NCBI GenBank assembly: GCA_934086395.1
Contig: CAKOIE010000002.1
Span: forward strand, 14,678-78,677
Length of the DNA stretch: 64,000 nucleotides
Source of the DNA: an uncultured Bacilli bacterium
Lineage (GTDB): Bacteria > Bacillota_I > Bacilli_A > RF39 > UBA660
Direction of reading: 5' to 3'
Under the pieces are notes generated by a model that was given only the letters and a program-made list of their open reading frames with translations, was not told the DNA's origin and did not search any database. This document shows, piece after piece, positions 3,599 through 55,985 of this stretch; the stretch's first letter is position 1; each line of letters opens with the position of its first letter. The position numbers were made by a program, and so were the translations under genes.

Positions 3599-6007
3599 CT
3601 ACTCGCTTCTTAAAGCATCAACTGGATTCTTTTTACTTGCCATCTTAGATGGAATAAGTCCTGCTATAACATTTAATAAAACACTAAGTAAAATCATTAT
3701 AACACCTTGTATTAAAGGTAAACTGAAATTAAGATTAACTTTAACTAATGTTTTTAAAATAATATTAATTGGTATAGACAACAATACTGATATACCTACA
3801 CCTAACACTCCAGCAATAACACCTTCAATAATAGTTTCAGATTTAAATACTCTTGAAATATCTTTTCCACTAGCACCAAGTGCTTTTAAAATTCCAATTT
3901 CTTTTGTTCTTTCAAGTACACTAATATAAGTAATAATTGCAATCATTATACTAGAAACAATTAAACTTACACTAACTACACCAATTAAAACTGCACTTAC
4001 TCCACTTACAATTGATGAAAGTTCAGTAAGAATTATTTTATTTTCATCACTATAAACTATTTTTTTATTTGTATTACCTTTATCTAATTGTTCCTTATTA
4101 TAGTTATCAATATATTCCTTAATTTTATTTTTAGAATCAAAATCTTTCGGAACGATACTAATACCTTCCGGATTATCTATATCTAATGAATTTAATAAAA
4201 GCATATTTCTATCATAAGTAGTATAAACATTATCAAATTTATCTCCACTAAAGACATCTATATCTTTATTCTTAATTTGTTCTTTAACTATTTCACTATC
4301 ATTTATATGCTGAACAAATTTTTTAAATAATTCTTCACTATAATATATATAAGAATCAGCATATTCACTATTATCATCTTCACTTGTATATTTAAGAATA
4401 CCAACAATATTTAAGTCAATTCCTTTCGTAATTAAATCATTCATATATTCCTTATCATTAAGTTTATTTATGTATTTTTCACCAACTTTTTGATATATAT
4501 CAGTATTATAAATTAACTTATATTTTAATTTTAAAAATGTATCATATGTATATGTTGTAGATTCGACTTTTTCATTTTTATTAATTAAATCTAAAACATT
4601 GTCCTTATCTTTAAGATATAAATAATATAGTACTGAATCATTAATTATTCCATCACTAGGAACTAATAATACCATATCATTTTCAGTTTCCGGATAATTT
4701 CCAGCCACTAAAGTATATTTATCATTTTCTTTTAAATAGTCAAAATTAATCTTATTAAATTTAATACCAGAAAAAGAATTTTTTAACCCATCATCTTCAT
4801 TAACAAATTCTATTAAAGGTTCAGTTATTTTAACAAAATCATCTTTATATTTATAATATATTGGAAGTGTATAATCATATTCATAATCTACATTTTTTGC
4901 ATATTCTTTAATTGAATTATTATTTTCAATATACTTTTTGAAAGATTTTAAATCATTTTTAATATATAATCCATCTTTTTTATTAAAACTTGATACAACA
5001 TCATCGTAAGAACAAATATCACTTTCACATTTATTTTTATCTGAATTAGAGTTGCTAAAATAATTTTCCATATCAAATGTGCTTTGTGAAATCGTTATAG
5101 GAAAATCTTCAAGAGTTTCTTTTTCAAATTTATTAATGTAATTTTTTAATCCTGAATTTAAAATTAACACTAAGCATATTCCTAGTATTCCAATAGATCC
5201 AGCAAAACTTGTTAAAAATGTTCTTCCTTTTTTAGTTAACAAATTTTTTAAAGATAAACTAAGTGTTGTTAAATAAGGCATATTTGTCTTATTAAATTTA
5301 ATTTTAGAACCATCTTCACTATTAGTTATTTTATAACTATTACTATCCCCAACAATTTTTCCATCCTTAAGTTCAATTATTCGATCTGAATATTTATTTG
5401 CTATTTCTTTATTATGAGTAACCATAATAATTAATTTATTTTTAGATATTTCTTTTAAAATATCCATAATCTGTACACTAGTATTTGAGTCTAATGCTCC
5501 CGTTGGCTCATCAGCTAAAATTATGTTTGGATTATTAACTATGGCTCTTGCAATAGCTACTCTCTGCATTTGTCCACCCGATAATTGATTAGGCTTTTTA
5601 TATAAATGATCATTTAATCCAACTTTTATTAATGCTTCGGTTGCTTTAATTCTTCGTTCTTTTTTGTTTATTCTTGATAAAGTTAATGCTAGTTCTACAT
5701 TTTCAAGAACACTTAGATGTGATATTAAATTATAATTTTGAAATACAAACCCAATTTTATAATTACGATAACTGTCCCAATTCTTTTTGGTGAAATTTTT
5801 AGTAGATAAATTATCAATAACTAAATCTCCGCTATCATAAACATCTAATCCACCAATTATGTTTAAAAGTGTTGTTTTTCCACTACCACTTGCTCCTAAA
5901 ATAGATACAAATTCATTTTTTCTAAAAGTTATATTTATATCCTTTAAAACTTGTTGCTTTTCTTCACCTATAATATAACTCTTATAAATATTTTTTAACT
6001 GCAACAT
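3599..6007 (-). CDS. ABC transporter, fused ATP-binding domain and FtsX-type permease (MacB-like)
   Basis: N-terminal Walker A GASGSGKTT, ABC signature LSGGQMQR and Walker B IILADEPT. C-terminal FtsX-like transmembrane helices with a long extracytoplasmic domain between them. Confidence 0.8.
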   Translation of the reverse strand: MLQLKNIYKSYIIGEEKQQVLKDINITFRKNEFVSILGASGSGKTTLLNIIGGLDVYDSGDLVIDNLSTKNFTKKNWDSYRNYKIGFVFQNYNLISHLSVLENVELALTLSRINKKERRIKATEALIKVGLNDHLYKKPNQLSGGQMQRVAIARAIVNNPNIILADEPTGALDSNTSVQIMDILKEISKNKLIIMVTHNKEIANKYSDRIIELKDGKIVGDSNSYKITNSEDGSKIKFNKTNMPYLTTLSLSLKNLLTKKGRTFLTSFAGSIGILGICLVLILNSGLKNYINKFEKETLEDFPITISQSTFDMENYFSNSNSDKNKCESDICSYDDVVSSFNKKDGLYIKNDLKSFKKYIENNNSIKEYAKNVDYEYDYTLPIYYKYKDDFVKITEPLIEFVNEDDGLKNSFSGIKFNKINFDYLKENDKYTLVAGNYPETENDMVLLVPSDGIINDSVLYYLYLKDKDNVLDLINKNEKVESTTYTYDTFLKLKYKLIYNTDIYQKVGEKYINKLNDKEYMNDLITKGIDLNIVGILKYTSEDDNSEYADSYIYYSEELFKKFVQHINDSEIVKEQIKNKDIDVFSGDKFDNVYTTYDRNMLLLNSLDIDNPEGISIVPKDFDSKNKIKEYIDNYNKEQLDKGNTNKKIVYSDENKIILTELSSIVSGVSAVLIGVVSVSLIVSSIMIAIITYISVLERTKEIGILKALGASGKDISRVFKSETIIEGVIAGVLGVGISVLLSIPINIILKTLVKVNLNFSLPLIQGVIMILLSVLLNVIAGLIPSKMASKKNPVDALRSE

Positions 6008-6675: not shown

Positions 6676-8070
6676 TTATATCTTATTATTTCTTATCTCA
6701 TATCTAATATTTTCATCATATCCATGATATAAATTATAATACCTACCAAAATATTCTCCATCTATTTTATCAAACCATACATAATTAGGATACTTATAAC
6801 TATTAACCTCAATTATCTTTTTATCTAAATTATTTTTAATAAAACTATCCCTTTCAACTTCACACCCATAATTTTCAATATTTACATACAAAAGTAAAAC
6901 ATATAAAATAAAACAAAAAATCTTAAACCAAACATAATCCTTAATAATAATCTTATTTATATCTAACACCCTAAACATTAAAATAATAATTAACACATAA
7001 GGTAAAAAGAATAATCTTTCTCCTAAAGGATGTATAAATACTAAAGGTAAAATAACACATACAATTAACAATACTAATTCCCATACATCTTTATTAAACT
7101 TAACTAATTTATATATTAAATAAAAATATAATATCAAATATAAAACATCTACTATAAATATAAAGTAAATATTAAACTTAAATAATCCACATAATATAGT
7201 CAAACATGTTAACATATTAAAAATTATCAACAATAAAGTATTTTTTAATTTACCTTTAAAATATAAATAAGAAAAAACAAACAATATAAATCCATTCAAA
7301 ATAACATTATCATTAATTAAGTTCACAAATATTCCATTAAATAAATTATTACTAATAATTCTAACTAATGAAGATTTATCTTGAGGAATATATCTATCAT
7401 TTAAAGTAGTACCAAATATTAAATTTAGATAACTTGGATGAATAAACATCATAATTGCACCAATAATACTACCAATTAACATAATAATTAGATTAATATT
7501 AACTCTTTTATTTTTAATAAAATATATTAAATTATAAATAAATAAAATCATTAAAGTACCAACAGTTATATTTTCAACGACTAATGAATTAAGTATTGTA
7601 ACAACAAATATTCCAATTTTTTCATACCATTTACTATTAGTTTTTTTATAATACTTCTTAATTAAATAGTATACACTTATAAAAAGTAATGTACTAATCA
7701 TATAATTACTAAATCCACTACCCCAAATTATAACTTGTGTAAATCTATTAATAGGCATTAAAAGTATTAATATTAAGAATATCCACAATGATATTTTTTC
7801 ATTTTTATCAATTAAATATAAAAGTAAAGTACTAACAAATGAAATTACTAATGCTTTAATTAAATGATTATAAGATATAAAAATTGCAACAAAATTCCCT
7901 AACCATCTTCCATTTAAAAATAAATCATTATATATATCTTTAATTGTACTAAAACTTAAACTTTTACTACCCCAATAAAAATCATCACATGAAAAAGGAA
8001 AGAAAAAAGAAAGTAACATTATCAAACAAAACAATATTATATATTTTTTATACTTCTTTAAATAATTCAT
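6676..8070 (-). CDS. Polytopic integral membrane protein (possibly a glycosyltransferase-like or YfhO-like membrane protein)
   Basis: 464 aa with more than 10 predicted transmembrane segments. Family is uncertain. Confidence 0.45.
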   Translation of the reverse strand: MNYLKKYKKYIILFCLIMLLSFFFPFSCDDFYWGSKSLSFSTIKDIYNDLFLNGRWLGNFVAIFISYNHLIKALVISFVSTLLLYLIDKNEKISLWIFLILILLMPINRFTQVIIWGSGFSNYMISTLLFISVYYLIKKYYKKTNSKWYEKIGIFVVTILNSLVVENITVGTLMILFIYNLIYFIKNKRVNINLIIMLIGSIIGAIMMFIHPSYLNLIFGTTLNDRYIPQDKSSLVRIISNNLFNGIFVNLINDNVILNGFILFVFSYLYFKGKLKNTLLLIIFNMLTCLTILCGLFKFNIYFIFIVDVLYLILYFYLIYKLVKFNKDVWELVLLIVCVILPLVFIHPLGERLFFLPYVLIIILMFRVLDINKIIIKDYVWFKIFCFILYVLLLYVNIENYGCEVERDSFIKNNLDKKIIEVNSYKYPNYVWFDKIDGEYFGRYYNLYHGYDENIRYEIRNNKI

Positions 8071-12788: not shown

Positions 12789-12862
12789 AGGGGTGTGGTA
12801 TAATGGTAGCATAGGAGTCTCCAAAACTTTTGATGGGAGTTCGATTCTCTCCACCCCTGCCA
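12789..12862 (+). tRNA. tRNA-Trp (anticodon CCA)
   Basis: Cloverleaf with acceptor AGGGGTG/CACCCCT, anticodon loop CUCCAAA and a terminal CCA. Closely resembles Bacillus tRNA-Trp. Confidence 0.85.
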
Positions 12863-17900: not shown

Positions 17901-18682
17901 ATTTTTTCTTTTTTATCTTCATAAGCATGATATAAAAATATTGAGTAATCAGTTGTTACACCTAATTGTAAAACAGCAACTAACGCTTTGGTTATATATG
18001 AGATATCTCCTAAGAATACGTTGGTACCAAAGTTGAACATAATAGCCATTCCTATGTTAGCAAGTAAAAGAATTGGTACAACATATGAATCAAGAGATAA
18101 CTCAAGAACTAATAAACAAAGAACAACTGCAATTATTACATAAATAGTTATTTCTTCATTAGATAAGTTCATTGTATCTAAGACCATTGAACTCATACCA
18201 CCTTGCATTAATTTGTGATCTGTGATATTTCTTATTTCTTCTACAGCATTAATGGTTCTTTCATCACTTGTTGAATACTTGAAAGTTATAAACATTAAGT
18301 CGGTATTATCTTGATGAATTTTATCTTTAATTTCTGATGGTAAAACATCAATTGGTATGTTAGTTCCTAATACATCATAGATACTTAAAACTTCATTTAC
18401 TCCTTCAACTTTAGTAATTTTATCTTTTAAGTTTAATATTTCTTTAGGAGATAAATTTTCAGCAACTACCATAGAATAAGAACCCATATTAAATTCATCA
18501 GTTAAGATATCTTGTCCTTTAATAGTATCTATTTCACTTGGCAAATAAACTAAGATATTGTAATTTATTGTTGTTAGTTTCATACCAATAAATGATAGAG
18601 CTAAAAGGATACATGATATAATTAACACTTTTGTTTTATTGTTAATTATAAATTTACTTATTTTTTTCATTTTTCCCTCCAC
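14930..18682 (-). CDS. MMPL/RND-superfamily transporter with a YhgE/Pip-like central extracytoplasmic domain
   Basis: Two blocks of about 6 transmembrane helices resembling MMPL domains. A long coiled-coil-like Ser/Asn/Thr-rich middle domain is reminiscent of YhgE/Pip. A divergent TetR gene lies upstream. Confidence 0.65.
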   Translation of the reverse strand: MEGKMKKISKFIINNKTKVLIISCILLALSFIGMKLTTINYNILVYLPSEIDTIKGQDILTDEFNMGSYSMVVAENLSPKEILNLKDKITKVEGVNEVLSIYDVLGTNIPIDVLPSEIKDKIHQDNTDLMFITFKYSTSDERTINAVEEIRNITDHKLMQGGMSSMVLDTMNLSNEEITIYVIIAVVLCLLVLELSLDSYVVPILLLANIGMAIMFNFGTNVFLGDISYITKALVAVLQLGVTTDYSIFLYHAYEDKKEKMSKEKAMEEAISETFTSVVGSSLTTIAGFLVLCTMKLTLGTDLGIVMAKGVLLGIISVLTIFPSLLLFFDKQVTKTKHKKLMPNFNKINTFIVNHNKAFFVIFIILLIPLYLANNKVEVYYKLDRSLPSYLESVKTNELLKEKYNIVSPQIILVDKNLKTDDLTNLTNELSSLKGIDLTLSTTKLVEYGLSDNMINLFDSDKYNLILINSEYDVATNELNNQIEEINKIVKKYDQNGIVAGEGALMKDLVTICDTDFKNVNYSSILCIFLILFIILKNFSLPFLLIIVIEGAIFANMSISYFTGSVLPFIAPIVLGTIQLGATIDYAILITTTYVNNRKTNKSKKECMINTLNYCGHSVLVSAACFFAATFGVGVYSKIEMIGSICNLISRGALISMLFVLTILPSILLIFDNIINKTNMKGNKMKKLNLAVLTVAMLSPLCVFANTKNETVYSKIDENGNVISTTVNEQIKNTKKLDTIEDYTELEDILNISSNDEITKLNKNITINVLGKDVFYQGTSKKTLPIGVNIKYYLDGKEESLDNILGKSGKIKIVINFTNNEKHNALVNGKQETMYTPFLVTMGTMLDSSATNIKINNGKVVASGNKNIVVGISSPYLNRSLNISELSSLNTLTLSYETDNFKLPTMYFVATNKLLSDTDLSVFNKLDGLNSKVDELQTNMNKIDTGASDLSKGINKLKNSLSSSINNLKNNNEDALDENTLAGIRTQTMHTVQNTFTNDYKKKLSESAWIKVEENLKNSNDTYVTDLATKTVSKILLSYLGSEEALNKYMLCVSGNMESCAYLIQNNYDIDKINAFALTLKQEITSLTTNTTNYIAEKVSKSVASTVAEETAMSTAESIVNTLAPTLSNQVKNESIKSFTSSLNTLYTNIDYIDSNMNTLSTGITTFNKEGIEEISALVNGPIASSKARVEALSKLADNYTSYASKGTSINDETKFIIVLDGKEKQEEKTNVTEETSKTNLWTRIKNLFK

Positions 18683-18841
18683 TTAATAATAATATACTTA
18701 TGAAACTAAATTAACACCAACATGTTAATATTTTTGTTTGATAAGCAACATAATTATGAATATGTATTAATAAATAATAGACTAATGTTGTTTTACTTTT
18801 AATTTTTAATAAACTGATGTATCATTAAATTGGTGAATTAA

Positions 18842-19405
18842 ATGGAAAAGAAAGAAGATTTAAGAATTACTAAGACTAAAAAGTTATTATATGAAGCCCT
18901 TTTAAAGGAAATGGAAACAAAAGCTTTTGAAGATATAAAAGTAAATGATCTATGTACTATAAGTATGATTAATAGATCAACATTTTATTCTCATTATAAT
19001 GATAAATATGATTTATTTGTTGATTTACTTAATACTTTAAAAAAAGAACTATTTGATAAGCTAGATGAAAATAAATATATTGTTAGTACTAAAGAATATT
19101 ATATGGAACTAATTAGACTATTACTTGACCATTTAGAAGAACATAAAAATATATATTATTCTATAATTTTAAGTAATAGAAATAGTTTAGTTGTTGATAT
19201 CATTTTAGATACTACAATTAAAGATATTAATAAAAGATTAAATATTAGTAATATTGATAGAAAAAGTGTTCCAGCTGATGTAATTGTTAATTTTTATTTA
19301 GGTGCTGTTTCAATGGTTGGACTTAATTATTTAAAGAGTGATAATAAATATAGTAAACAAGATATTATTAATTATTTGAGTGTGCTTATTCCAGATAATA
19401 TTTAA
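18842..19405 (+). CDS. TetR/AcrR family transcriptional regulator
   Basis: N-terminal HTH 'DIKVNDLCTISMINRSTFYSHYNDKYDL'. Divergent from the MMPL transporter gene. Confidence 0.75.
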   Translation: MEKKEDLRITKTKKLLYEALLKEMETKAFEDIKVNDLCTISMINRSTFYSHYNDKYDLFVDLLNTLKKELFDKLDENKYIVSTKEYYMELIRLLLDHLEEHKNIYYSIILSNRNSLVVDIILDTTIKDINKRLNISNIDRKSVPADVIVNFYLGAVSMVGLNYLKSDNKYSKQDIINYLSVLIPDNI

Positions 19406-19424
19406 TAATTATTTTATGTCAATT

Positions 19425-19449
19425 GTGTCGCCAATGGCGACACTTTTTT
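19425..19449 (+). terminator. Intrinsic terminator of the TetR gene (GTGTCGCC-AAT-GGCGACAC then TTTTTT)
   Basis: 8-bp GC-rich perfect stem, 3-nt loop and T-run, 20 nt after the TetR stop. Confidence 0.7.
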
Positions 19450-19560
19450 ATATAACAATATTTGTTCCAACTTAATTGGTGCTACAATGTCGCACCTTTT
19501 TCAATTAACAAATAAATTGTTTATCATTTCAAAATTATAACATTTTTTAATTTGATTAAT

Positions 19561-19902
19561 CTAATAATTTATTTCATTGTATTTATAAAGAGATAATAAC
19601 AATCTACAGTTTGACCATGACAATTGTGTCCCCACTGGGGACACTTTTTCATCACTAAATACTTTATAAAACTGTTTCATTCTAAATAATGTACGCCGAT
19701 TATATTTTTTACCTACTTCTACAACTAATCTTTTAGAATATTCATCAATTATATTATCGCCATATTTACCACCAGCTTCGGTTAATAATCTACCTATTTC
19801 AAAATAAGTATTCACAGTATTTCTTTCTTTTGAATAATCTTTTACTTTAGAGTATATTTCATTATCTATTATTTTATTTTTTATTTCTTCATAATAATTC
19901 AT
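19561..19902 (-). pseudogene. Truncated DUF1016 (YhcG-like) gene, N-terminal 113-aa fragment
   Basis: The first 68 codons are nearly identical in DNA to the two full-length copies. The ORF stops prematurely before the PD-(D/E)xK domain. Confidence 0.65.
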
Positions 19903-19917
19903 TTATCTTCCTTCTTT

Positions 19918-20808
19918 CTATACTAATTCATAATTTCTAGCTATAATTCTTTTATCACTACAATATTCAATAATATATTCATTATTTTCTCTACATACAA
20001 TTATTCCAATTGTTTTATCTTGATTTGATTTCTTTAAATTATTATCTATATAATTCATATATATTTCTATTTGTCCAATATGTTCTTTCTTTAGTTTTGC
20101 AACTTTAAGTTCTACTACAACATAACAATTAAACTCTATGTTATATAGTAATAAATCAATATAATTATATCTATCACCTAATTTTATAGGATACTCATTA
20201 CTAATAAAGCTAAAGCCTGATCCTAGTTCTTGCATAAAATTTTTAATATCTTCTAATATAATTTGTTGCAATACTTTTTCGGATATTTCAATATATTTAT
20301 TTGTATTTTTAATCAATATTGGATTCTTTACTAAATCAGGTAATAATGGTTCTTCATTTGCAATAAGTTTAGTCTTAGCGCTTTCATTTAATCTTTCGTA
20401 TTCTTTGAATTTAATTTTTTCGTCTAATTGTCTTTTTGTTAAATTATATTTTATACATTCATTAGCGTAATAGTTAATTTCGTCATAATTTCTTAATGGA
20501 ATTAAAAGTAAACAATTGCTCCAAGATAATTGTCGCACCAATGGAGCGACTTTTTCATTACTAAAAATTTTAAATAATTGTTTCATTTTGTATAAGGTTT
20601 TAGTATTATACTTTTTGCCTACTTCTACAACTAATCTTTTAGAATATTCATCAATAATATTATCGCCATATTTACCACCTGCTTCATTTAATAATCTTCC
20701 TATTTCAAAATAAGTATTTACAGTATTTCTTTCTTTTGAATAATCTTTTACTTTAGAGTATATTTCATTATCTATTATTTTATTTTTTATTTCTTCATAA
20801 TAATTCAT
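19918..20808 (-). CDS. DUF1016/YhcG-like PD-(D/E)xK nuclease family protein (copy B)
   Basis: N-terminal DUF1016_N-like region with a QLSWSN motif. C-terminal PD-(D/E)xK-like 'YIDLLLYN...YVVVELK'. The C-terminal 150 aa are identical to copy A. Confidence 0.7.
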   Translation of the reverse strand: MNYYEEIKNKIIDNEIYSKVKDYSKERNTVNTYFEIGRLLNEAGGKYGDNIIDEYSKRLVVEVGKKYNTKTLYKMKQLFKIFSNEKVAPLVRQLSWSNCLLLIPLRNYDEINYYANECIKYNLTKRQLDEKIKFKEYERLNESAKTKLIANEEPLLPDLVKNPILIKNTNKYIEISEKVLQQIILEDIKNFMQELGSGFSFISNEYPIKLGDRYNYIDLLLYNIEFNCYVVVELKVAKLKKEHIGQIEIYMNYIDNNLKKSNQDKTIGIIVCRENNEYIIEYCSDKRIIARNYELV

Positions 20809-20823
20809 TTATCTTCCTTCTTT

Positions 20824-21714
20824 CTATACTAATTCATAATTTCTAGCTATAATTCTTTTATCACTACAATATTCAATAATATATTCATTATTTTCTCTAC
20901 ATACAATTATTCCAATTGTTTTATCTTGATTTGATTTCTTTAAATTATTATCTATATAATTCATATATATTTCTATTTGTCCAATATGTTCTTTCTTTAG
21001 TTTTGCAACTTTAAGTTCTACTACAACATAACAATTAAACTCTATGTTATATAGTAATAAATCAATATAATTATATCTATCACCTAATTTTATAGGATAC
21101 TCATTACTAATAAAGCTAAAGCCTGATCCTAGTTCTTGCATAAAATTTTTAATATCTTCTAATATAATTTGTTGCAATACTTTTTCGGATATTTCAATAT
21201 ATTTATTTGTATTTTTAATCAATATTGGATTCTTTACTAAATCAGGTAATAATGGCTTTACATTTGCAATAAGTTTAGTCTTAGCGCTTTCACTAAGTCT
21301 TTCATATTCTTGAGATTTAATCTTATTTCGCAATTCTCTTATACTAATATTAAAGTTATTACAAATTCTTATGTAGTATATTATTGCATTGATATTTTTT
21401 AGCTTTAATAATTCTGAATAATGACTCCAAGTCAATTGTGTCGACAGTGTCGACACTTTTTCATCACTAAATACTTTATAAAATTGCTTCATCCTAAATA
21501 AGGTACGGCGATTATATTTTTTGCCTACTTCTACAACTAATCTTTTAGAATATTCGTCAATAATATTATCGCCATATTTACCACCAGCTTCGGTTAATAG
21601 TCTACCTATTTCAAAATAAGTATTTACGGTATTTCTTTCTTTTGAATAATCTTTTACTTTAGAGTATATTTCGTTATCGATTATTTTATTTTTTATTTCT
21701 TCATAATAATTCAT
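20824..21714 (-). CDS. DUF1016/YhcG-like PD-(D/E)xK nuclease family protein (copy A)
   Basis: Same architecture as copy B. The N- and C-termini are identical and the middle ~75 aa diverge. Confidence 0.7.
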   Translation of the reverse strand: MNYYEEIKNKIIDNEIYSKVKDYSKERNTVNTYFEIGRLLTEAGGKYGDNIIDEYSKRLVVEVGKKYNRRTLFRMKQFYKVFSDEKVSTLSTQLTWSHYSELLKLKNINAIIYYIRICNNFNISIRELRNKIKSQEYERLSESAKTKLIANVKPLLPDLVKNPILIKNTNKYIEISEKVLQQIILEDIKNFMQELGSGFSFISNEYPIKLGDRYNYIDLLLYNIEFNCYVVVELKVAKLKKEHIGQIEIYMNYIDNNLKKSNQDKTIGIIVCRENNEYIIEYCSDKRIIARNYELV

Positions 21715-21754
21715 TTTATCCTTCTTTCTAATTTATTTTTTCTTATTATCAATA

Positions 21755-22477
21755 TTATTTGTAGCTAATACACGTAACATTATCATCTAACATAAGTAAA
21801 TTCATTGGTTTATTTGAATAATTTTCTATTAATTTAACAACATTAAGTAATATTTCATCATCACCTGCTAATTGATATGAATAACTTATACTTAAAGATG
21901 TTAATAACTTTAATGCTTTAGTTAACCAACTATTAACATTATTTAATTTATTTAAAGATACATAAGTAGTTAAAGGAGTATTTTTAATAATCTCTCCTGT
22001 TTTATAATCACTATAAACATACTTTTCAATTAAAAAATTATTATTATATTCATAAGTTTGTAAAACAACTGAAGCATATCCTATTTTTTTATTATTCAAA
22101 GTTAAATTATTTTTTAATTCAAAACGAAAAATATAAGAATTACTACTAATTAATAATTTATTATTATAATTATTACTAATATTAGAAGAATCTATAAATA
22201 TATCAATAACTGGTTTATTTAATTCATATCTCATGTATTTAAAACTATCATTAGTAATAACATAAGAATTAATAATATTATTAAGTTCAATATCAAATAC
22301 TTTAGATATAATAGTTTTAAAATATATATTATATTTATTAAATAAATATTTAAATACTTCTTCATTAATTATTGGTAAATGAAAATCATTATTACATTTT
22401 AAATAATTATTAGTATTAATTAACTTAAGATTATAATTTAATTTATCTAGATCATATATTGTAATTAATTTTGCCAT
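21755..22477 (-). CDS. Hypothetical protein
   Basis: 240-aa Asn/Tyr-rich ORF. RBS AAAGGAATAAAATTT before the ATG. Confidence 0.4.
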   Translation of the reverse strand: MAKLITIYDLDKLNYNLKLINTNNYLKCNNDFHLPIINEEVFKYLFNKYNIYFKTIISKVFDIELNNIINSYVITNDSFKYMRYELNKPVIDIFIDSSNISNNYNNKLLISSNSYIFRFELKNNLTLNNKKIGYASVVLQTYEYNNNFLIEKYVYSDYKTGEIIKNTPLTTYVSLNKLNNVNSWLTKALKLLTSLSISYSYQLAGDDEILLNVVKLIENYSNKPMNLLMLDDNVTCISYK

Positions 22478-22489
22478 AAATTTTATTCC

Positions 22490-22518
22490 TTTCTAAAAAG
22501 AGGAAATATTTTCCTCTT
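22490..22518 (-). terminator. Terminator-like hairpin (GAAGAGGAAA..TTTCCTCTT then TTTT) at the end of the 3' UTR of the 22778..24295 gene
   Basis: 9-bp inverted repeat with a T-run on the minus strand. Confidence 0.45.
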
Positions 22519-22777
22519 CTATATATATATTTAGTATAAAGTTTATTAATTTACTTGTTTTTTTTGTAAATAAAATAGAATTTAATTAAAATAAAAAAGA
22601 CATTGAACCAATCAATATCCATTTTAACTTATAATATCTAAATAAAATAACTTCATATATTGTTAAAAATAACACTGTAAGAAATAGAAAATGTTTATAA
22701 AGTTTTCCTAAGAACGGGCTCCTATAATCGCGTGGCAGGTCCCTACCTGCCTGCTCTCCCTCGCGCTTCGCTATATA

Positions 22778-24295
22778 TCACTCAAGTGTATATGCATTTT
22801 CTATACTTTCGCCTGTTCCTCCAGCTATCACGACATCAGATTTTAAGAAAAGGGCCGGACGCACACCATACGTGCTGAAAGCAACGCGGTCGCTGACATC
22901 CCCGCCCGAACCGACACGGAACACATAATCCGCATCGCCAGAACTAGGGGACAAAGTCCATTGATATGCACTGTTAAATAACCAGTTATTTACTTTACTA
23001 TCAGCATCATCACAGTCGTATAAACTATTTCTGCATGCAGCTCCGGTTGATGCATATCCATAATCACTTGGATAAATTAAGGCGATTTTTCCATCCCATG
23101 CATTTTTTCTTGCTATTCCGTCTGATGGATTACTGATATGTAATGTTCCTCTTTCGGCATTGTACATATTCAAAGCAGAAACTGAATATGTATTATAACC
23201 ACCTAGATTCCATCTTACTTTTGCTACTTTATCTAATGAACTACTTTTTATATTTTTTCTATAATCGTATGATCCATTTTTTTCATTATTTTGTCCATTA
23301 TACCATAAGGTTGTACCACTCGTTTTATTTGATAAATACCCTTCAGCAATATCACTTCGACAATATGCTGTGCTTCCACTACCATCACAGTTTAATTCAT
23401 ACATTAAATCTGCTTGACTCCATTCATTTACTCCCCATCCATTATTTATACTTGATTCAGAAGTATCCCATGAATAATTTCCTAGTAAATCATTTCTTAC
23501 TATTTTTACAAGTGATTCCTTCTTTTCTTTACCATTCTCATCTATTGTTGTTATATTATTAAATACTCCTATTATTCTCCATATTTCATCACCATTAAAT
23601 TTTAGATAGTTCCTTGGTGATGCTCCTACATATCTTATATTTTTTTCTGGTGTATCATCTTTTTCTAATCCATTATCTGTTGCTGCTTTATTGTATGTAT
23701 TATTTAAATGTAAAAATAAGGGGGTTAGTGATGATGTATCGTTTGTATTTTCTATTGTTATTTTAGCGTTCAAAACTAATTGCCCATTTTTATTTTGAAT
23801 TTTATCTGATTTAGGAAAATATAAATTTAAACGATACTTAGTAGTTGTATTTGTTTTAGGTGATATTGTTAATTCTTTTAAAATTGCTTTACCAGCTGCT
23901 ATAGTTGGAAACATTGTCTTTTCTTGAACTACTGTACTATAATTTGTTCCACTATAAATATCATAATATAGAACACCGTCATTTTCAGTATCAGTAAATG
24001 TATTTAAATCTATTATTGTCTTCAAATACAATTTATAACTATTATTAGAAGTGTTTTTTACTGTTATAGAAAAATCCTTATAACCAATTGGTGTATCACC
24101 AGGTAATGCATTTTCAATAGTTATAGTACTCGTCGATTCAAACTTTGCAGATAACTGAGCACCTCCAATAATCATAGTTGATGAATCTTCTGACTTTATA
24201 TTTAAATCAAAATATGCATAAGTTATACCAAAAAATAATCCAATAGTTAATAAGAATACTAATAAAGTTATTATAATAATTTTGTTATTTTTCAT
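22778..24295 (-). CDS. Secreted protein with a TasA/camelysin-like SipW-cognate signal peptide and a conserved C-terminal domain (paralog 1)
   Basis: N-terminal 'KIIIITLLVFLLTIGLFFGITYAYFD' resembles TasA/CalY signal regions (GGTxAxF). C-terminal '..WTLSPSSG..VRPALFLKSDVVIAGGTGESIENAYTLE' is shared with paralog 2. Lies 35 nt downstream of the GH31 gene. Confidence 0.6.
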   Translation of the reverse strand: MKNNKIIIITLLVFLLTIGLFFGITYAYFDLNIKSEDSSTMIIGGAQLSAKFESTSTITIENALPGDTPIGYKDFSITVKNTSNNSYKLYLKTIIDLNTFTDTENDGVLYYDIYSGTNYSTVVQEKTMFPTIAAGKAILKELTISPKTNTTTKYRLNLYFPKSDKIQNKNGQLVLNAKITIENTNDTSSLTPLFLHLNNTYNKAATDNGLEKDDTPEKNIRYVGASPRNYLKFNGDEIWRIIGVFNNITTIDENGKEKKESLVKIVRNDLLGNYSWDTSESSINNGWGVNEWSQADLMYELNCDGSGSTAYCRSDIAEGYLSNKTSGTTLWYNGQNNEKNGSYDYRKNIKSSSLDKVAKVRWNLGGYNTYSVSALNMYNAERGTLHISNPSDGIARKNAWDGKIALIYPSDYGYASTGAACRNSLYDCDDADSKVNNWLFNSAYQWTLSPSSGDADYVFRVGSGGDVSDRVAFSTYGVRPALFLKSDVVIAGGTGESIENAYTLE

Positions 24296-27848: not shown

Positions 27849-30554
27849 TACATCATGACATCTAGGGCAAACATCGCCAACTAATTCATCAACATAATTC
27901 CAACATCTATTACATTTTTGACCAGATGATTTTTCAACTAAAAGATTTACATTTTCTCCTTTAGGTAATTCTTCATTAGTAAAGATAACTTTAGATACAA
28001 TCAATAATTGATGAATATATTTGCCTAATTCTTCTTTAACTAAATTGTATTTTTCTGATAAATTAAGTTTAACTTCGGCTTCTAGAGATGAACCAATAAC
28101 TTTTTCACTTCTTGCTGTTTCTAATGCTTTATTAACATCTGCTTTTATTTCGAAGAATAAATCCCATACTTTTTCATCAAAATTATAATCTTTTACTGTA
28201 GGCATATCTAATAGATGAACGCTTTCGCTCTTATTTTCACCAGGAATATATCTATATGCTTCTTCTGATGTGTAAGGTAAAATTGGAGCAAGTAATGTAA
28301 CTAAATTATTTATAATATTATATAAAACTGTTTGAACGCTTCTTCTGACTTTTGAATCAGCTTTTTCAATATATAAAATATCTTTAGTCATATCTAAGTA
28401 GAAGTTAGATAATGTGAATGAAATAAAGTTATTTGTTTCTTTATATACATTATTAAATTCATATTTACTATAGTAATCTAAAACATTTTTAGTATATTTG
28501 TTTAGTTCACTCATCATGTATTTGTCGTATGGATACATGTCAGCAAATGTAATTGTGTTTTCTTCTGGTTTGAAATCATTTAAGTTTCCTAAAATAAATT
28601 TATAGGTATTTCTAATTTTACGATAACTTTCTTGAACTTGTTTTAAGATTTCATCGCCGATACGAACATCTTCGGTATAATCTGTAGATGCTGCCCAAAG
28701 TCTTAGAACATCGGCACCTCTTTTATTGCATTCAGTTACAGGATCAATTCCATTACCTAATGATTTAGACATTTTATTACCTTTTCCATCAAGAGTGAAT
28801 CCATGGGAAATACATTCTTTGTATGGGCTTCTTCCATGAACAGCTACTCCGGTAATTAATGATGAATTAAACCATCCACGATATTGGTCAGATCCTTCTA
28901 AGTAGATGTCTGCTGGATAATCTAGACCTCTTGCACATAATACGCCAGTATGAGTTGAACCTGAATCAAACCAAACATCCATAATATCTTGTTCTTTAGT
29001 GAACTTTCCATTTGGACTTGCTGGGTTAGTATATCCTTCTGGTAATAAATCTTTCGCTTCTCTTTCAAACCAAACGTTTGAGCCATATTCTCTAAATAAA
29101 GCTGCTACATGCATCATTACATCATAATCTAAAATAGCTGAACCATCTTCATTATAGAAAATTGGTAGTGGTACTCCCCAAACTCTTTGTCTTGAAATAC
29201 ACCAGTCTCCTCTACCTTCAATCATATTATGAAGTCTTACTTTACCCCATTCTGGATGCCATTTAATATTATTTTCAATTTCATCTAAGATTTGTTTTTT
29301 AATTGGCTCGATTGAGCAGAACCACTGAGATGTTGCTCTAAAAATAATTGGTTTTTTAGTTCTCCAGTCATGTGGATATGAGTGAGTTATTTCTTTAACG
29401 CAAAGTAAATTTCCTAATTCTCTTAATTTAGTAATAATTGCTTTGTTAGCATCTTCAAAATATAGACCAGCAAATTCTTTGCCAGAGTTTTCGTTTAGTT
29501 TTCCATCATCGTTAACTCCAAAAATCATTTCTAATCCGTATTTTTTACCCCAAGCAAAGTCAACTTCACCATAACTAGGTGCTGTGTGAACTAAACCGGT
29601 TCCATCTTCATCAGATACTTCTTCTCCACAAATTACTGGACTAATTCTTTCTACTAATGGGTGAGAATATTTAACTCCTTCAATATCTTTTCCTTTAAAT
29701 CTTGAAATTTCAGTATAGTTTTCCCATTTAAATAGTAGTGTTACTTTATCAAGAAGTGTTGCTCCTACTACATAATGTTTTCCATCTACTTCTACTTTAA
29801 CATATTCAAAATCAGGATTAACGCAGATTCCAGTATTTCCTGGTAATGTCCATGGAGTTGTTGTCCAAATAACTAAATATTCTCCATTTTCTAAATAATT
29901 ATTTCCTTCACAAACTGGAAATGCAACAAAGATTGATAAATCTTTTTTATCTTTATATTCAATTTCAGCTTCTGCTAGGGCTGATTCAGAAGATGGTGAC
30001 CAATATACTGGCTTCATACCTTTAAAAATTAAACCTTTTTTAGCCATTTCAGCAAATACTTCAATTTGTTTAGCTTCTAATTCATGTTGAAATGTAGCAT
30101 AATAGTGCTCCCAATCAGCTAAGACATTTAATCTTTTAAATCCTTCCATTTGTTTAGATACTTGTTCTTTAGCATATTTTTCACAAATTGTTCTAAATTC
30201 AGCTTTTGACATTGATTTACGATCAATACCACTATTTGTAACAGCTTGTTCAATTGGTAGTCCGTGAGTATCCCATCCTGGAATATATATTACGTCTCTT
30301 CCACTCATCATATAATAACGATTAATAAAATCTTTAAGAATTTTATTCATGGCATGACCAATATGAATTGAACCATTAGCATATGGTGGTCCATCATGTA
30401 AAACGAATGGTTTCTTTCCTTTATTCTTTTCTCTAGTTTTAGCGTAAAGATTCATTTCTTCCCATTTTTGGGCTTGAATTATTTCATTTTCGCCTAAATT
30501 TCCTTTCATTTGAAATTCGGTTTTTGGCATTAATAGTGTTTCTTTGTAATCCAT
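27837..30554 (-). CDS. ileS: Isoleucine--tRNA ligase
   Basis: HIGH motif 'PYANGSIHIGHA', KMSKS motif 'KMSKSLGN' and a C-terminal zinc knuckle 'CNRCW...CPRCH'. Confidence 0.95.
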   Translation of the reverse strand: MDYKETLLMPKTEFQMKGNLGENEIIQAQKWEEMNLYAKTREKNKGKKPFVLHDGPPYANGSIHIGHAMNKILKDFINRYYMMSGRDVIYIPGWDTHGLPIEQAVTNSGIDRKSMSKAEFRTICEKYAKEQVSKQMEGFKRLNVLADWEHYYATFQHELEAKQIEVFAEMAKKGLIFKGMKPVYWSPSSESALAEAEIEYKDKKDLSIFVAFPVCEGNNYLENGEYLVIWTTTPWTLPGNTGICVNPDFEYVKVEVDGKHYVVGATLLDKVTLLFKWENYTEISRFKGKDIEGVKYSHPLVERISPVICGEEVSDEDGTGLVHTAPSYGEVDFAWGKKYGLEMIFGVNDDGKLNENSGKEFAGLYFEDANKAIITKLRELGNLLCVKEITHSYPHDWRTKKPIIFRATSQWFCSIEPIKKQILDEIENNIKWHPEWGKVRLHNMIEGRGDWCISRQRVWGVPLPIFYNEDGSAILDYDVMMHVAALFREYGSNVWFEREAKDLLPEGYTNPASPNGKFTKEQDIMDVWFDSGSTHTGVLCARGLDYPADIYLEGSDQYRGWFNSSLITGVAVHGRSPYKECISHGFTLDGKGNKMSKSLGNGIDPVTECNKRGADVLRLWAASTDYTEDVRIGDEILKQVQESYRKIRNTYKFILGNLNDFKPEENTITFADMYPYDKYMMSELNKYTKNVLDYYSKYEFNNVYKETNNFISFTLSNFYLDMTKDILYIEKADSKVRRSVQTVLYNIINNLVTLLAPILPYTSEEAYRYIPGENKSESVHLLDMPTVKDYNFDEKVWDLFFEIKADVNKALETARSEKVIGSSLEAEVKLNLSEKYNLVKEELGKYIHQLLIVSKVIFTNEELPKGENVNLLVEKSSGQKCNRCWNYVDELVGDVCPRCHDVLKK

Positions 30555-30860
30555 TTTTAACTCCTCCTTTAATTAAAAAAAGTTCATAAATATAGAGACG
30601 ACTAATCGCGGTACCACTCTACTTTATGAACTTTAATTCATACACTCTTTCTCTTAACGTGAGATTGCCGTACTTTCCTTATCCGAAAGTCACATCAGAA
30701 GTGATTTACATTATATTTTATTATATCTTAATTTCACCATATATAAGACTCTCTAAATAAACCATATAATGTCGTCTTCATCAATTGCTTTATGTCTTAA
30801 ATTATAGAATTTATTTACATGTTTGTCAATTAGTTAGTTTGACTTATGCATGTTTTATAA
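30555..30860 (-). promoter_or_regulatory. T-box riboswitch leader of ileS
   Basis: Conserved T-box sequence AGAGUGGUACCGCG on the minus strand. It is followed by terminator AGTTCATAAA...TTTATGAACT then TTTTTTT, directly upstream of the RBS GGAGGAG. Confidence 0.85.
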
Positions 30861-32447: not shown

Positions 32448-32525
32448 TGGTGCTAGAAAGAGGAATTGAACCTCCAACCTACTGATTACGATTCAGTTGC
32501 TCTACCTAATTGAGCTATTCCAGCA
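32448..32525 (-). tRNA. tRNA-Thr (anticodon CGU)
   Basis: Cloverleaf GCUGGAA.../...UUCUAGCACCA with anticodon loop AUCGUAA and T-loop GGTTCAATTCC. Confidence 0.8.
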
Positions 32526-55908: not shown

Positions 55909-55985
55909 GGGGAATTAGCTCAGTTGGCTAGAGCATCTGCCTTGCACGCAGAGGGTCAAGGGTTCGAGTCCCTTATTCTCCACCA
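55909..55985 (+). tRNA. tRNA-Ala (anticodon UGC)
   Basis: GGGGAAT acceptor with a G3:U70 pair, anticodon loop CUUGCAC, T-loop GGTTCGAGTCC and a CCA end. Promoter-like TTGCTA/TATAAT upstream. Confidence 0.9.

Follow-up and report, generated by a model that had tools for sequence, protein, structure and literature searches.

A covarying hairpin inside the reading frame is a hallmark of the DUF1016/YhcG nuclease family

Genes of the DUF1016/YhcG family carry, at a fixed codon position, a hairpin that strong purifying selection maintains as a nucleic-acid structure. Eight Watson-Crick pairs (in other members as many as 12-16) and a triloop of the form purine-N-pyrimidine are preserved, and the stem sequence and the encoded peptide drift through paired substitutions. 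The hairpin is a hallmark of the whole family and is not peculiar to the array in the window (the whole 64-kb stretch of DNA analyzed here). In the lineage of the window it may act as a one-way intrinsic terminator of antisense transcription, relics of the array being kept by convergent genes, a reading that is preferred tentatively.

DUF1016/YhcG is a very common, uncharacterized PD-(D/E)XK nuclease family and a candidate phage-defence gene. The hairpin overrides protein sequence and codon usage at a fixed site, over a range that runs from gut Bacilli (22% GC) to prophage hosts (58% GC), and is among the clearest cases of selected nucleic-acid structure in bacterial coding sequence. At least part of the ‘conserved motif’ that precedes (L/I)(S/P)W in Pfam DUF1016_N reflects a signal in the nucleic acid, and relics of the hairpin beside DUF1016 genes are easily mistaken for ordinary terminators.

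The DUF1016 array and its hairpins

A sequence-only reading of this DNA had described a decaying tandem array of DUF1016 genes, and ORFs and Pfam agree on two full-length genes and an N-terminal fragment, alongside which lie two hairpin-only relics (Table 1). The genes belong to the DUF1016/YhcG family (Pfam PF17761 and PF06250; COG4804), with DUF1016_N scores of 94.1 bits in copy A (E-value 1e-26), 84.4 in copy B and 61.8 in fragment C (9.8e-17), against a Pfam gathering cut-off of 32.8 bits, and YhcG_C scores of 127.6 and 127.5 bits in A and B (5e-37 in copy A; cut-off 32.5). D218, E233 and K235 are invariant in the alignment, the D...E-x-K core of PD-(D/E)XK nucleases is present, and the modelled C-domain matches EndoMS/NucS with a probability of 1.0. 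Matches to the PADLOC PDC-S02 profile HMM (3.8e-65 for copy A, and 1.7e-61) place A and B in a candidate defence system, with putative phage protection. The neighbouring genes are housekeeping genes (ComEC, HolA, TpiA, PriA), with no defence genes among them. The convergent TetR neighbour is also present in the loci L001, L002 and L266. The B-C spacer (19903-19917) is identical to the A-B spacer, and the array is probably one transcription unit, because the 15-nt spacers leave no room for a promoter.

Table 1. Features of the array and its surroundings (positions in the window)
Feature	Position	Strand	Details
TetR-family regulator, 187 aa	18842..19405	+	ORF, TetR_C_8 1.2e-6; convergent, running into the array 3' end
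Relic 1	19425..19449	+	GTGTCGCC-AAT-GGCGACAC, 8/8 pairs (19425-19443), then T6
Relic 2, hairpin only	19478..19496		GGTGCTAC-AAT-GTCGCACC, 7/8 pairs, then TTTTT
Fragment C, N-terminal 113 codons of a third copy	19561..19902	-	ORF + Pfam
Fragment C hairpin	19626..19644		GTGTCCCC-ACT-GGGGACAC, 8/8 pairs, then TTTTT
Copy B, DUF1016/YhcG gene, 296 aa	19918..20808	-	ORF + Pfam
Copy B variable central cassette	20350..20604	-	gene nt 205-459
Copy B hairpin	20532..20550		GTCGCACC-AAT-GGAGCGAC, 7/8 pairs, A.A mismatch on plus, then TTTTT
A-B spacer, 15 nt	20809..20823	-	AAAGAAGGAAGATAA, with ribosome-binding site
Copy A, DUF1016/YhcG gene, 296 aa	20824..21714	-	ORF + Pfam
Copy A 3' 432 nt	20824..21255	-	100% identical to copy B 19918-20349
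Copy A variable central cassette	21256..21510	-	gene nt 205-459, hairpin inside; A vs B 0.66 identity
Copy A hairpin, codons 87-93	21438..21456		GTGTCGAC-AGT-GTCGACAC, 8/8 pairs; TTTTT at 21457-21461 (plus)

The five hairpins lie exactly where the sequence-only reading had put them. All are GC-rich, with an 8-bp stem, a 3-nt loop and the plus-strand flanks AATTG and TTTTT, and they account for five of only seven distinct GC-rich 8-bp hairpins in the window (24.5% GC). The plus-strand RNA of the copy A hairpin folds at -14.9 kcal/mol (z -3.2), and the fragment C hairpin, 20 codons past which the fragment ends, at -18.2 kcal/mol (z -3.2). The copy B stem is the weaker one that had been reported: one of its eight pairs is a mismatch, and the minimum-energy fold of the local RNA is a different one. 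In its orthologue L004:7165 the pair is restored (GTCGCACC/GGTGCGAC, sense strand).

Relic 1, which had been proposed to double as the TetR terminator, likely does so, judging by its placement 20 nt 3' of the TetR stop codon, its T6 tail and the retention of 7-8 of its 8 pairs in three orthologous loci (the window, L001 and L002). It folds at -16.1 kcal/mol (z -4.9), with 0 of 200 shuffles equally good. Relic 2 is decaying, with 5 of 8 Watson-Crick pairs in the L001 orthologue and deletion in L002; its flank CAATTAAGTTGGAACAAT matches CAATTATCTTGGAGCAAT downstream of the copy B hairpin. Both relics are genuine pieces of genes.

Covariation and selection on structure

The earlier claim that structure is conserved, and neither sequence nor peptide, was suggested by the five window copies and is proven by their homologues. 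Among 135 distinct homologous segments, paired cells amount to 92.3%, compared with 52.1% in shuffled and 26-45% in slid controls, and double-sided (compensatory) changes are found at all 8 pairs. The first 135 sequences contain 66 different stem octamers. An independent RNAalifold consensus, the check that had been proposed, recovers seven pairs, all compensatory, and at least 6 of 8 pairs are present in 116 of 117 further metagenome copies. When the peptides are held fixed and synonymous codons are resampled, the mean falls to 3.5 pairs, with at least 7/8 pairs in 0.4% (92% observed) and 8/8 in 0.015%.

The stems are 66% GC in genes of 22% GC. Where pairing demands C or G at a third codon position, 95-96% of cases have it, while C- or G-ending codons make up only ~3-12% each in these genes. 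The peptides encoded at the hairpin are diverse (e.g. KVSTLSTQL, KWSTVSTKL, KGARMGHQL and KSHTVCDQL) and pairing persists throughout. These residues, part of the variable segment that had been considered as a possible surface or DNA-recognition loop, are predicted by the AF2 model to be an inter-helix linker, residues 89-95 forming a coil between helices 85-88 and 96-102.

Wobble pairs are avoided: in a test of fixed second against free third positions, a fixed G is faced by C 183 times and by T 3 times, and a fixed C by G 639 times and by A 19 times. No strand preference for G.U was found in a controlled test (p=0.44) or in the distant set (6 vs 6). A first count of non-Watson-Crick cells (34 being G.U in antisense RNA vs 6 in sense RNA) was discarded as a strand signal, being a coding artefact, because CAA->TAA makes a stop and TTG->TTA is synonymous. 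Loop position 1 is A in 208 of 229 copies and complementary to position 3 in 206 of 229; in the distant set the two positions do not covary (0.64 vs 0.66 shuffled), and a ‘9+1+9 perfect palindrome’ was accordingly discarded as a sign of duplex dyad symmetry.

Occurrence across the family

Of 74 distant DUF1016 genes (at loci with a GC of 0.27-0.62), 64 have the element as their strongest hairpin. Distant members have arms of 12-16 bp and loops of 3 nt, with AATT on both flanks and a T-run on neither strand. The element is ancestral to the family, in the form of an AATT-stem-loop-stem-AATT palindrome that reads alike on either strand. Related loci totalling 924 kb contain 180 hairpins of the window type; 141 fall within DUF1016 hits, and some 15 of the other 39 share their flanks with these and are found immediately 3' of an array. 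The hairpin adds no length relative to hairpin-less homologues (L061: IENGVELHQQLTW). In the clade of L057 and L061 the internal hairpin is lost, and near-identical cores stand between genes as A5-stem-T5 bidirectional terminators.

DUF1016/YhcG is present in 4465 of 5426 complete E. coli genomes, and also in prophages and plasmids; yhcG DNA is found at a median of 1 place per E. coli genome. The K-12 yhcG gene contains three tandem 39-nt modules, L165 and L193 contain two each, and a widespread E. coli allele stops exactly past a hairpin. In E. coli the yhcG locus serves for LSPA-6 typing of O157:H7, and its length differs by 78 nt, or two modules, between K-12 and F765. With three copies in K-12 and one in natural alleles, the question of function is directly testable in E. 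coli.

The hairpin is undescribed in Rfam and in the literature searched. Rfam 15 gave no relevant match at E<=10 in 18500-22600, only a T-box and tRNAs at gathering score in the whole window, and no match in E. coli yhcG or five distant loci, and a known RNA family was rejected as an identity.

Mosaic structure and array turnover

The full copies are mosaic genes with a strongly diverged centre, as the sequence-only reading had noted. Two of its details need adjustment. The first ~68 codons, described as identical, are 95% identical between A and B (194 of 204 nt; fragment C matches A at 196 of 204), and the identity described for the last ~150 codons holds for the final 432 nt (144 codons) only. 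This 3' identity points to recent gene conversion or duplication; orthologues differ by 10-11% across the same stretch. The central cassette of A is 0.89 identical to its L001 orthologue, and that of B is orthologous to L002_6907 (0.91 identity), the 3' half of B being identical to A.

In 52 within-locus paralogue pairs, the variable block spans approximately codons 61-135, with the hairpin inside it at codons 87-93 and not at its boundary. The hairpin is therefore neither the mosaic boundary nor, as had been suggested, a general breakpoint of gene conversion or recombination. Copy number is constant among near-identical strains, the exact copy A protein occurring on 6 public contigs that all have the A-B-C layout, and varies between related species, L001 having A plus a fragment and L002 three full copies. 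The array would turn over via duplication, gene conversion and deletion, and hairpin-only relics would persist where a convergent gene has a use for them, as with relic 1 behind TetR, and would decay elsewhere, as with relic 2.

Possible functions of the hairpin

The tentatively preferred explanation is termination of antisense transcription in the window lineage. In this AT-rich gut Bacilli lineage, the upstream AATT would have been replaced with an A-run, so that the GC-rich stem is followed directly by T4-5 on the plus (antisense) strand, giving the anatomy of an intrinsic terminator. The hairpin would then act as a one-way terminator or insulator. The sense mRNA, translated and carrying no U-tract, would have its hairpin melted by ribosomes, while in untranslated antisense RNA, arising from convergent TetR read-through or from the numerous spurious promoters in a gene of 22% GC, the hairpin would halt RNA polymerase. 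The 5' part of each nuclease gene and the upstream genes would be shielded.

The base composition next to the stem is consistent with this explanation. Four nucleotides ahead of the stem, at a third position that is synonymous and belongs to 16 different codons, 124 of 135 sequences have A, and the three positions following it are A in 135, 128 and 121 of 135. Lys86 is encoded by AAA 119 times and never by AAG (background A3 0.36-0.54, AAA 0.83), and an A-run of at least 4 is present in 188 of 235 copies. Judged by this codon choice, the T-run exceeds coding need. A terminator scan found the hairpin with T5 on the plus strand only. A GC-rich stem, a 3-8-nt loop and a T-run within 0-2 nt are all present at 19425, 19626 and 21438 on that strand, the hairpins at 20532 and 19478 departing by one mismatch each, and the minus (sense) strand, with AATTG as the tail, lacks the feature. 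Three of the six terminator-like sites at 12-30 kb of the window are array hairpins. Termination also fits the retention of relic 1 behind TetR while relic 2 decays, the A5-stem-T5 hairpins between genes in the clade of L057 and L061, and the many promoter-like sites on the strand antisense to DUF1016 genes. Relic 1 lies at the end of a transcription unit; the intragenic copies are antisense inside ORFs, with no defined antisense promoter ahead of them.

Against termination stand the short U-tract (4-5), the absence of a G.U preference on the antisense RNA and the distribution of the element. A convergent gene lies downstream at just 28 of 71 loci. A positionally conserved antisense promoter feeding the hairpin was sought and rejected, the best position being occupied in only 39% of copies. 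The distant homologues carry the palindrome without a T-run on either strand. Termination is therefore neither the ancestral role nor a general one, and in the window lineage it may be incidental, so the antisense terminator raised by the sequence-only reading is weakened as a primary function. The lack of a T-run in distant homologues, together with the lack of wobble tolerance on either strand, means that the ancestral role may be that of a DNA hairpin or cruciform, or of an mRNA element. With wobble equally rare on both strands, sequence alone cannot separate an antisense terminator, an mRNA element and a DNA structure.

Function at the DNA level is rather unlikely, and has several observations in its favour. 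The palindrome would form a DNA hairpin (in single-stranded DNA during replication, transfer or repair) or an extruded cruciform, serving the encoded Holliday-junction-resolvase/NucS-like nuclease as a built-in structured substrate or regulatory site, or simply being a fragile spot behind the duplications, deletions and cassette turnover of these gene clusters. The ancestral element is strand-symmetric and has no features of transcription termination, and wobble is tolerated no better than other mismatches on either strand, as expected of DNA pairing. The 12-16-bp arms of distant members, with their 3-nt loops, match the classical cruciforms of ColE1 and pBR322 in size; the arms of the window lineage, by contrast, are only 8 bp, which is short for cruciform extrusion. 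Modules are duplicated locally (the three in K-12 with the 78-nt strain indel, the two in L165 and L193, and relic pairs ~50 nt apart), and the widespread E. coli allele terminates exactly past the hairpin, but the boundaries of hairpin and variable block do not coincide. Loop positions 1 and 3 do not covary in the distant set, so duplex dyad symmetry itself is not selected, and the A-run is left unexplained. The C-domain resembles EndoMS/NucS and was earlier compared to archaeal junction resolvases (PMC1189080), and a defence system set off by palindromic hairpin DNA exists (PMC11707656), but binding of the protein to its own gene is hypothetical.

A role in the sense mRNA is unlikely. Here the hairpin would tune a potentially toxic nuclease, through a translational pause at the domain linker, RNase entry or protection, or a binding site for its own protein. 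It is always part of the transcribed ORF, where it keeps to one codon position within a linker that tolerates change. Its stability (-12 to -18 kcal/mol here) and the longer stems found elsewhere would affect ribosomes and RNases, although ribosomes normally melt strong structures in ORFs. After module duplication one copy stays perfect and the Trp-proximal copy is degenerate, suggesting that one hairpin per gene is needed, and extragenic relics are mostly 7/8 and decaying. However, the sense strand shows no G.U excess despite mutation pressure (3 T vs 183 C opposite G), the hairpin is ~260 nt from the start codon, distant from the usual sites of translational control, and the A-run at synonymous sites is again unexplained.

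An improbable but far-reaching variant is that the hairpin is a cis-encoded partner of its own nuclease: each gene would have in its variable cassette a structure of its own, a hairpin or cruciform in DNA or a stem-loop in RNA, whose shape is recognized by the junction-resolvase/NucS-like gene product. It could be a self-substrate, decoy or licensing cofactor that autoregulates the nuclease (the PDC-S02 candidate), or could trigger cassette diversification. If true, this would be a new principle, a nuclease gene encoding its own structured ligand within the reading frame.

The absence of any function is very improbable, being largely refuted already by the covariation, wobble, distant-gene and resampling results: the motif V-Q-Q-x-V-A-Q gives part of the symmetry, codon first positions pairing G-C with first positions, and template switching, which makes paired changes at quasi-palindromes in one step, would mimic compensation and explain the absent wobble intermediates in a self-perpetuated quasi-palindrome, but pairing stays where peptides vary widely and far exceeds that of random codons for fixed peptides, GC-rich stems are held against strong AT mutation pressure, the element keeps its position across phyla, and relics decay once extragenic.

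Comparison with known systems

The 8-bp GC-rich stem, short loop and immediate plus-strand T-run resemble intrinsic and bidirectional terminators, as do the placement of 19425-19449 directly behind a convergent gene and the A5-stem-T5 elements between genes in the sister clade. By contrast, four of the five window copies lie in or derive from coding sequence, antisense and at a fixed codon position, and distant family members have no T-run. Two other signals acting within genes were rejected. A -1 frameshift signal was judged from sequence, where the A-run abuts the stem without a spacer, GAA-AAA-G does not make a proper slippery heptamer, and A and B have only short -1 frames, which are unrelated to each other. 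An internal start codon in the loop (codon 90 = NTG) was set aside, the commonest codon there being CTG.

Rickettsia palindromic elements are 100-150-bp mobile in-frame insertions across many unrelated genes. They share with the DUF1016 hairpin the tolerance of translated palindromic DNA in surface or linker regions, whereas the DUF1016 hairpin is inherited with one gene family and involves no change in length. Integron attC sites are likewise conserved in structure over sequence, occur once per tandem unit and belong to arrays that end in a partial unit. Unlike attC (57-141 nt), the hairpin is 19 nt long, lies within the ORF and is also found in single-copy genes; no integrase or recombinase was found among the flanking ORFs of 80 loci and no attC cores (GTTRRRY/RYYYAAC), the flanks being AAAAA/AATTG, and integron-like cassettes were ruled out.

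REP elements are also 20-40-bp palindromes that form stem-loops and small tandem clusters, and can be terminators or mRNA stabilizers. They are extragenic, with tens to hundreds of dispersed near-identical copies and a GTAG/CGTC tag (PMC3733652), whereas the DUF1016 hairpin is intragenic, occurs only in or next to DUF1016 genes and has a stem sequence of its own in each copy. A dispersed REP-like repeat was rejected, all five window copies lying at 19421-21462 and none elsewhere in the 64 kb. The inverted repeats in coding sequences of an organelle genome offer a further likeness, with both arms translated and protein function kept together with a strict secondary structure. Those repeats, however, can be as long as 284 bp, are spread over many genes of that single genome and encode residues that are conserved, while the DUF1016/YhcG element is one 19-35-nt hairpin per gene, in one bacterial and phage family across phyla, with residues free to change.

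The DUF1016 array and its hairpins

Region 19406-21714 of the window (24.5% GC) holds three minus-strand units, the full DUF1016/YhcG genes copy A and copy B and a piece of a third copy, fragment C, separated by identical 15-nt spacers with a ribosome-binding site. Copies A and B agree at 194/204 positions over nt 1-204, at about 60-70% over nt 205-420 and at 432/432 over nt 460-891; the first 68 codons, described as identical in the sequence-only reading, are thus approximately but not exactly so. The central cassettes represent old lineages: that of A shares 0.89 identity with the orthologue in one related locus (L001) and that of B 0.91 with the orthologue in another (L002), against 0.66 between A and B. 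Over their 3' halves A and B match each other at 100% but their orthologues at 0.89-0.90, which points to gene conversion or very recent duplication. The hairpin had also been proposed as a recombination or gene-conversion breakpoint; in 52 within-locus paralogue pairs it falls inside the variable block (codons ~61-135), so it does not mark a recombination boundary in general. In related loci, DUF1016 arrays reach seven copies, and fragments and hairpin-only relics are also common.

All five window hairpins lie precisely where the first reading had placed them, each built as an 8-bp stem closing a 3-nt loop, preceded on the plus strand by AATTG and followed by TTTTT; 3/5 are perfect and 2/5 have one mismatch. 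Of GC-rich hairpins built in this way, all 64 kb contain only seven distinct ones, these five among them; a terminator scan of 12-30 kb lists six sites, three of which are array hairpins.

Features of the window (coordinates alone) and of comparison loci (L-numbers)
Feature	Position	Strand	Remarks
Copy A	20824..21714	minus	296 aa; Pfam DUF1016_N + YhcG_C
Copy B	19918..20808	minus	296 aa; Pfam DUF1016_N + YhcG_C
Fragment C	19561..19902	minus	113-aa N-terminal piece
TetR-family gene	18842..19405	plus	convergent, adjoins array 3' end
Relic 1	19425..19449		hairpin-only remnant
Relic 2	19478..19496		remnant
Promoter-like site	19395-19422	minus	TTGACA-16-TATTAT (11/12, near-consensus); start in CAATTGACA flank of relic 1, directed antisense into TetR gene
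T-box leader	30591-30793	minus	upstream of 905-aa ORF ending at 30554; ordinary feature
tRNA genes Trp-CCA, Thr-CGT, Ala-TGC	12789-12862, 32448-32524, 55909-55985		ordinary features
Intergenic terminators of the hairpin-less clade	L061:4820-4870, 5790-5822, 5920-5965, 6890-6935, 7095-7140; L057:5929, 6903, 7037		
Copies with sense-strand TTTT	L031:7155, L021:2719, L032:782, L046:7204, L047:8031, L048:7148, L070:4441, L078:745		
Copies with Trp-to-stop change	L041:6259, L003:4787, L021:3628, L043:288		
ComEC-like gene upstream	L005, L006, L009, L015, L018, L019, L022 + 19 others		

Covariation of the stem

Related loci (80 from uncultured gut Bacilli/'Tenericutes'-type genomes and 80 from metagenomes) allowed codons 87-93 to be mapped in 149 and then 117 more DUF1016 copies, almost all of which contain the hairpin. 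Among 135 distinct 49-nt segments, with 66 distinct 5' octamers, standard pairs fill 92.3% of cells versus 52.1% after shuffling (equalled in 0/500 shuffles), pairing drops to 26-45% when the 3' partner is shifted by 1-3 columns, double-sided changes occur at 8/8 pairs (387 cells), and the covariation score is 0.844 versus 0.178 shuffled. RNAalifold, which had been suggested as a check, independently returns a 7-pair stem with compensatory changes at every pair. The peptide varies along with the stem (KVSTLSTQL, KWSTVSTKL, KGARMGHQL, KSHTVCDQL, KLNPVGSKL). The original observation, that structure is kept while sequence and residues change, is borne out and greatly strengthened.

PADLOC classes the proteins as PDC-S02, a one-gene family that is a candidate for defence. 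In an AlphaFold model (mean pLDDT 71.7) the N-domain is helical and the C-domain is of PD-(D/E)XK type, with matches to EndoMS/NucS and Cas4-type nucleases. Helices 85-88 and 96-102 of this model are joined by coil at residues 89-95, so the hairpin encodes mostly a linker, which accounts for why sequence change is tolerated.

Across the hairpins the triloop obeys a purine-N-pyrimidine rule (e.g. window 21446-21448, 19634-19636); at its synonymous first position T was observed 3 times versus 94 expected and A 197 versus 94. The invariant Trp three codons past the hairpin (codon 96) has changed from TGG to TAG or TGA in at least four copies, either a recurrent route of inactivation or a mutational hot spot.

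Possible functions

The best reading, offered tentatively, is that an old palindrome, which reads alike on both strands, was exapted in AT-rich Bacilli as a putative one-way terminator antisense to the gene. The interpretation given in the sequence-only reading is supported in part. In favour of an antisense terminator, conservation of the T-run in the window's lineage exceeds what coding requires, with A at one synonymous site in 124/135 copies (16 different codons), Lys86 encoded by AAA 119 times and never by AAG, and an A-run of at least 4 in 188/235 copies. Relic 1, 20 nt past the TetR stop, keeps 7-8/8 pairs in three genomes and also favours a terminator; relic 2, in contrast, decays or is deleted. 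In L057 and L061, loci whose genes lack an internal hairpin (peptide IENGVELHQQLTW), near-identical cores stand between genes as A5-stem-T5 terminators, and a long bidirectional terminator, TTTCCCAAAAA-GTGCAGCA-GAC-TGCTGCAC-TTTTTGGGAAA, whose core resembles the intragenic hairpins of other copies, flanks each DUF1016 gene. Against an antisense terminator count the ancestral element, which lacks a T-run, the failure to find a conserved antisense promoter, and wobble pairs, which are equally rare on both strands. (A strand asymmetry of wobble pairs that seemed strong in a first count was rejected as a coding artefact.)

Some copies also carry TTTT directly past the stem on the sense strand, giving AAAA-stem-TTTT, with the look of a bidirectional terminator, within an intact ORF; these often have LLSY or ILSW instead of QLSW.

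It is possible, if unlikely, that the element acts as DNA, the hairpin or cruciform being a substrate, regulator or fragile site, and slightly less likely still that it is an element of the sense mRNA. A purely mutational or protein-motif origin is highly improbable and largely excluded, the protein-motif explanation by three controls: resampling synonymous codons from the genes' own usage with the peptide fixed yields a mean of 3.5 pairs, with 7/8 reached in 0.4%, versus an observed mean of 7.37, with 92% reaching 7/8; stem GC is 66% versus 22% for the gene; and, with every second codon position of the stem paired to a third one, the latter is C or G in 95-96% of the cases that need it for pairing, though codons ending in C or in G each supply only about 3-12% of their families.

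Neighbouring genes

Arrays are neighboured by housekeeping genes; neither R-M genes nor recombinases turned up among the neighbours of related loci. In 26 of these loci a ComEC-like competence gene lies 12-14 nt upstream on the same strand, in some followed by a HolA-like gene downstream of DUF1016 (e.g. L013, L067), and the nuclease gene may share a transcript with the gene for the DNA-uptake channel. Directly upstream of the window's array is a 240-aa ORF (21755-22477; 12-14% GC) without Pfam, NCBIfam or PADLOC match, kept in position in L001, L002 and L266. Beyond it, the 3' ~300 nt of a 505-aa secreted-protein ORF (22778..24295, minus; no NCBIfam match) reach 43-50% GC versus 24.5% for the genome, a sharp island at 22700-23100 that suggests a recently acquired C-terminal domain.

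Occurrence across the family

The module belongs to the family as a whole, as shown by distant DUF1016 genes from prophage and viral contigs (mutual identity 23-55%, loci 27-62% GC). In 64/74 genes the single best hairpin of the whole gene lies just 5' of the (L/I)(S/P)W motif's invariant Trp, with 8-16-bp arms and a 3-nt loop. In 50 distinct distant hairpins, Watson-Crick pairing is 90-98% at pairs 1-8 versus 33-53% after shuffling, and each position shows 3-4 types of pair; the loop starts with a purine in 49/50. AATT/AATT flanks lengthen the stem to 12-14 bp (e.g. GCAATTGTCCAACA-GGC-TGTTGGACAATTGC), and neither strand of these genes has a T-run.

Rfam contains no family matching the hairpin, no paper in the literature searched ties yhcG or DUF1016 to a hairpin or palindrome, and the element appears to be undescribed so far. 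E. coli K-12 yhcG (L185:8130-8240; loci L187 and L186 were also compared) carries the module three times in tandem, repeating every 39 nt, and the stem of the third copy is 18 bp long; the F765 gene, 78 nt shorter, has one perfect module, AATTCGCCAGAC-AGT-GTCTGGCGAATT. In about 1100 complete E. coli genomes the yhcG allele is cut short precisely where the third hairpin ends; the 101-aa ORF that comes next is annotated 'transposase' and matches no Pfam family. The element is thus open to direct testing in E. coli.
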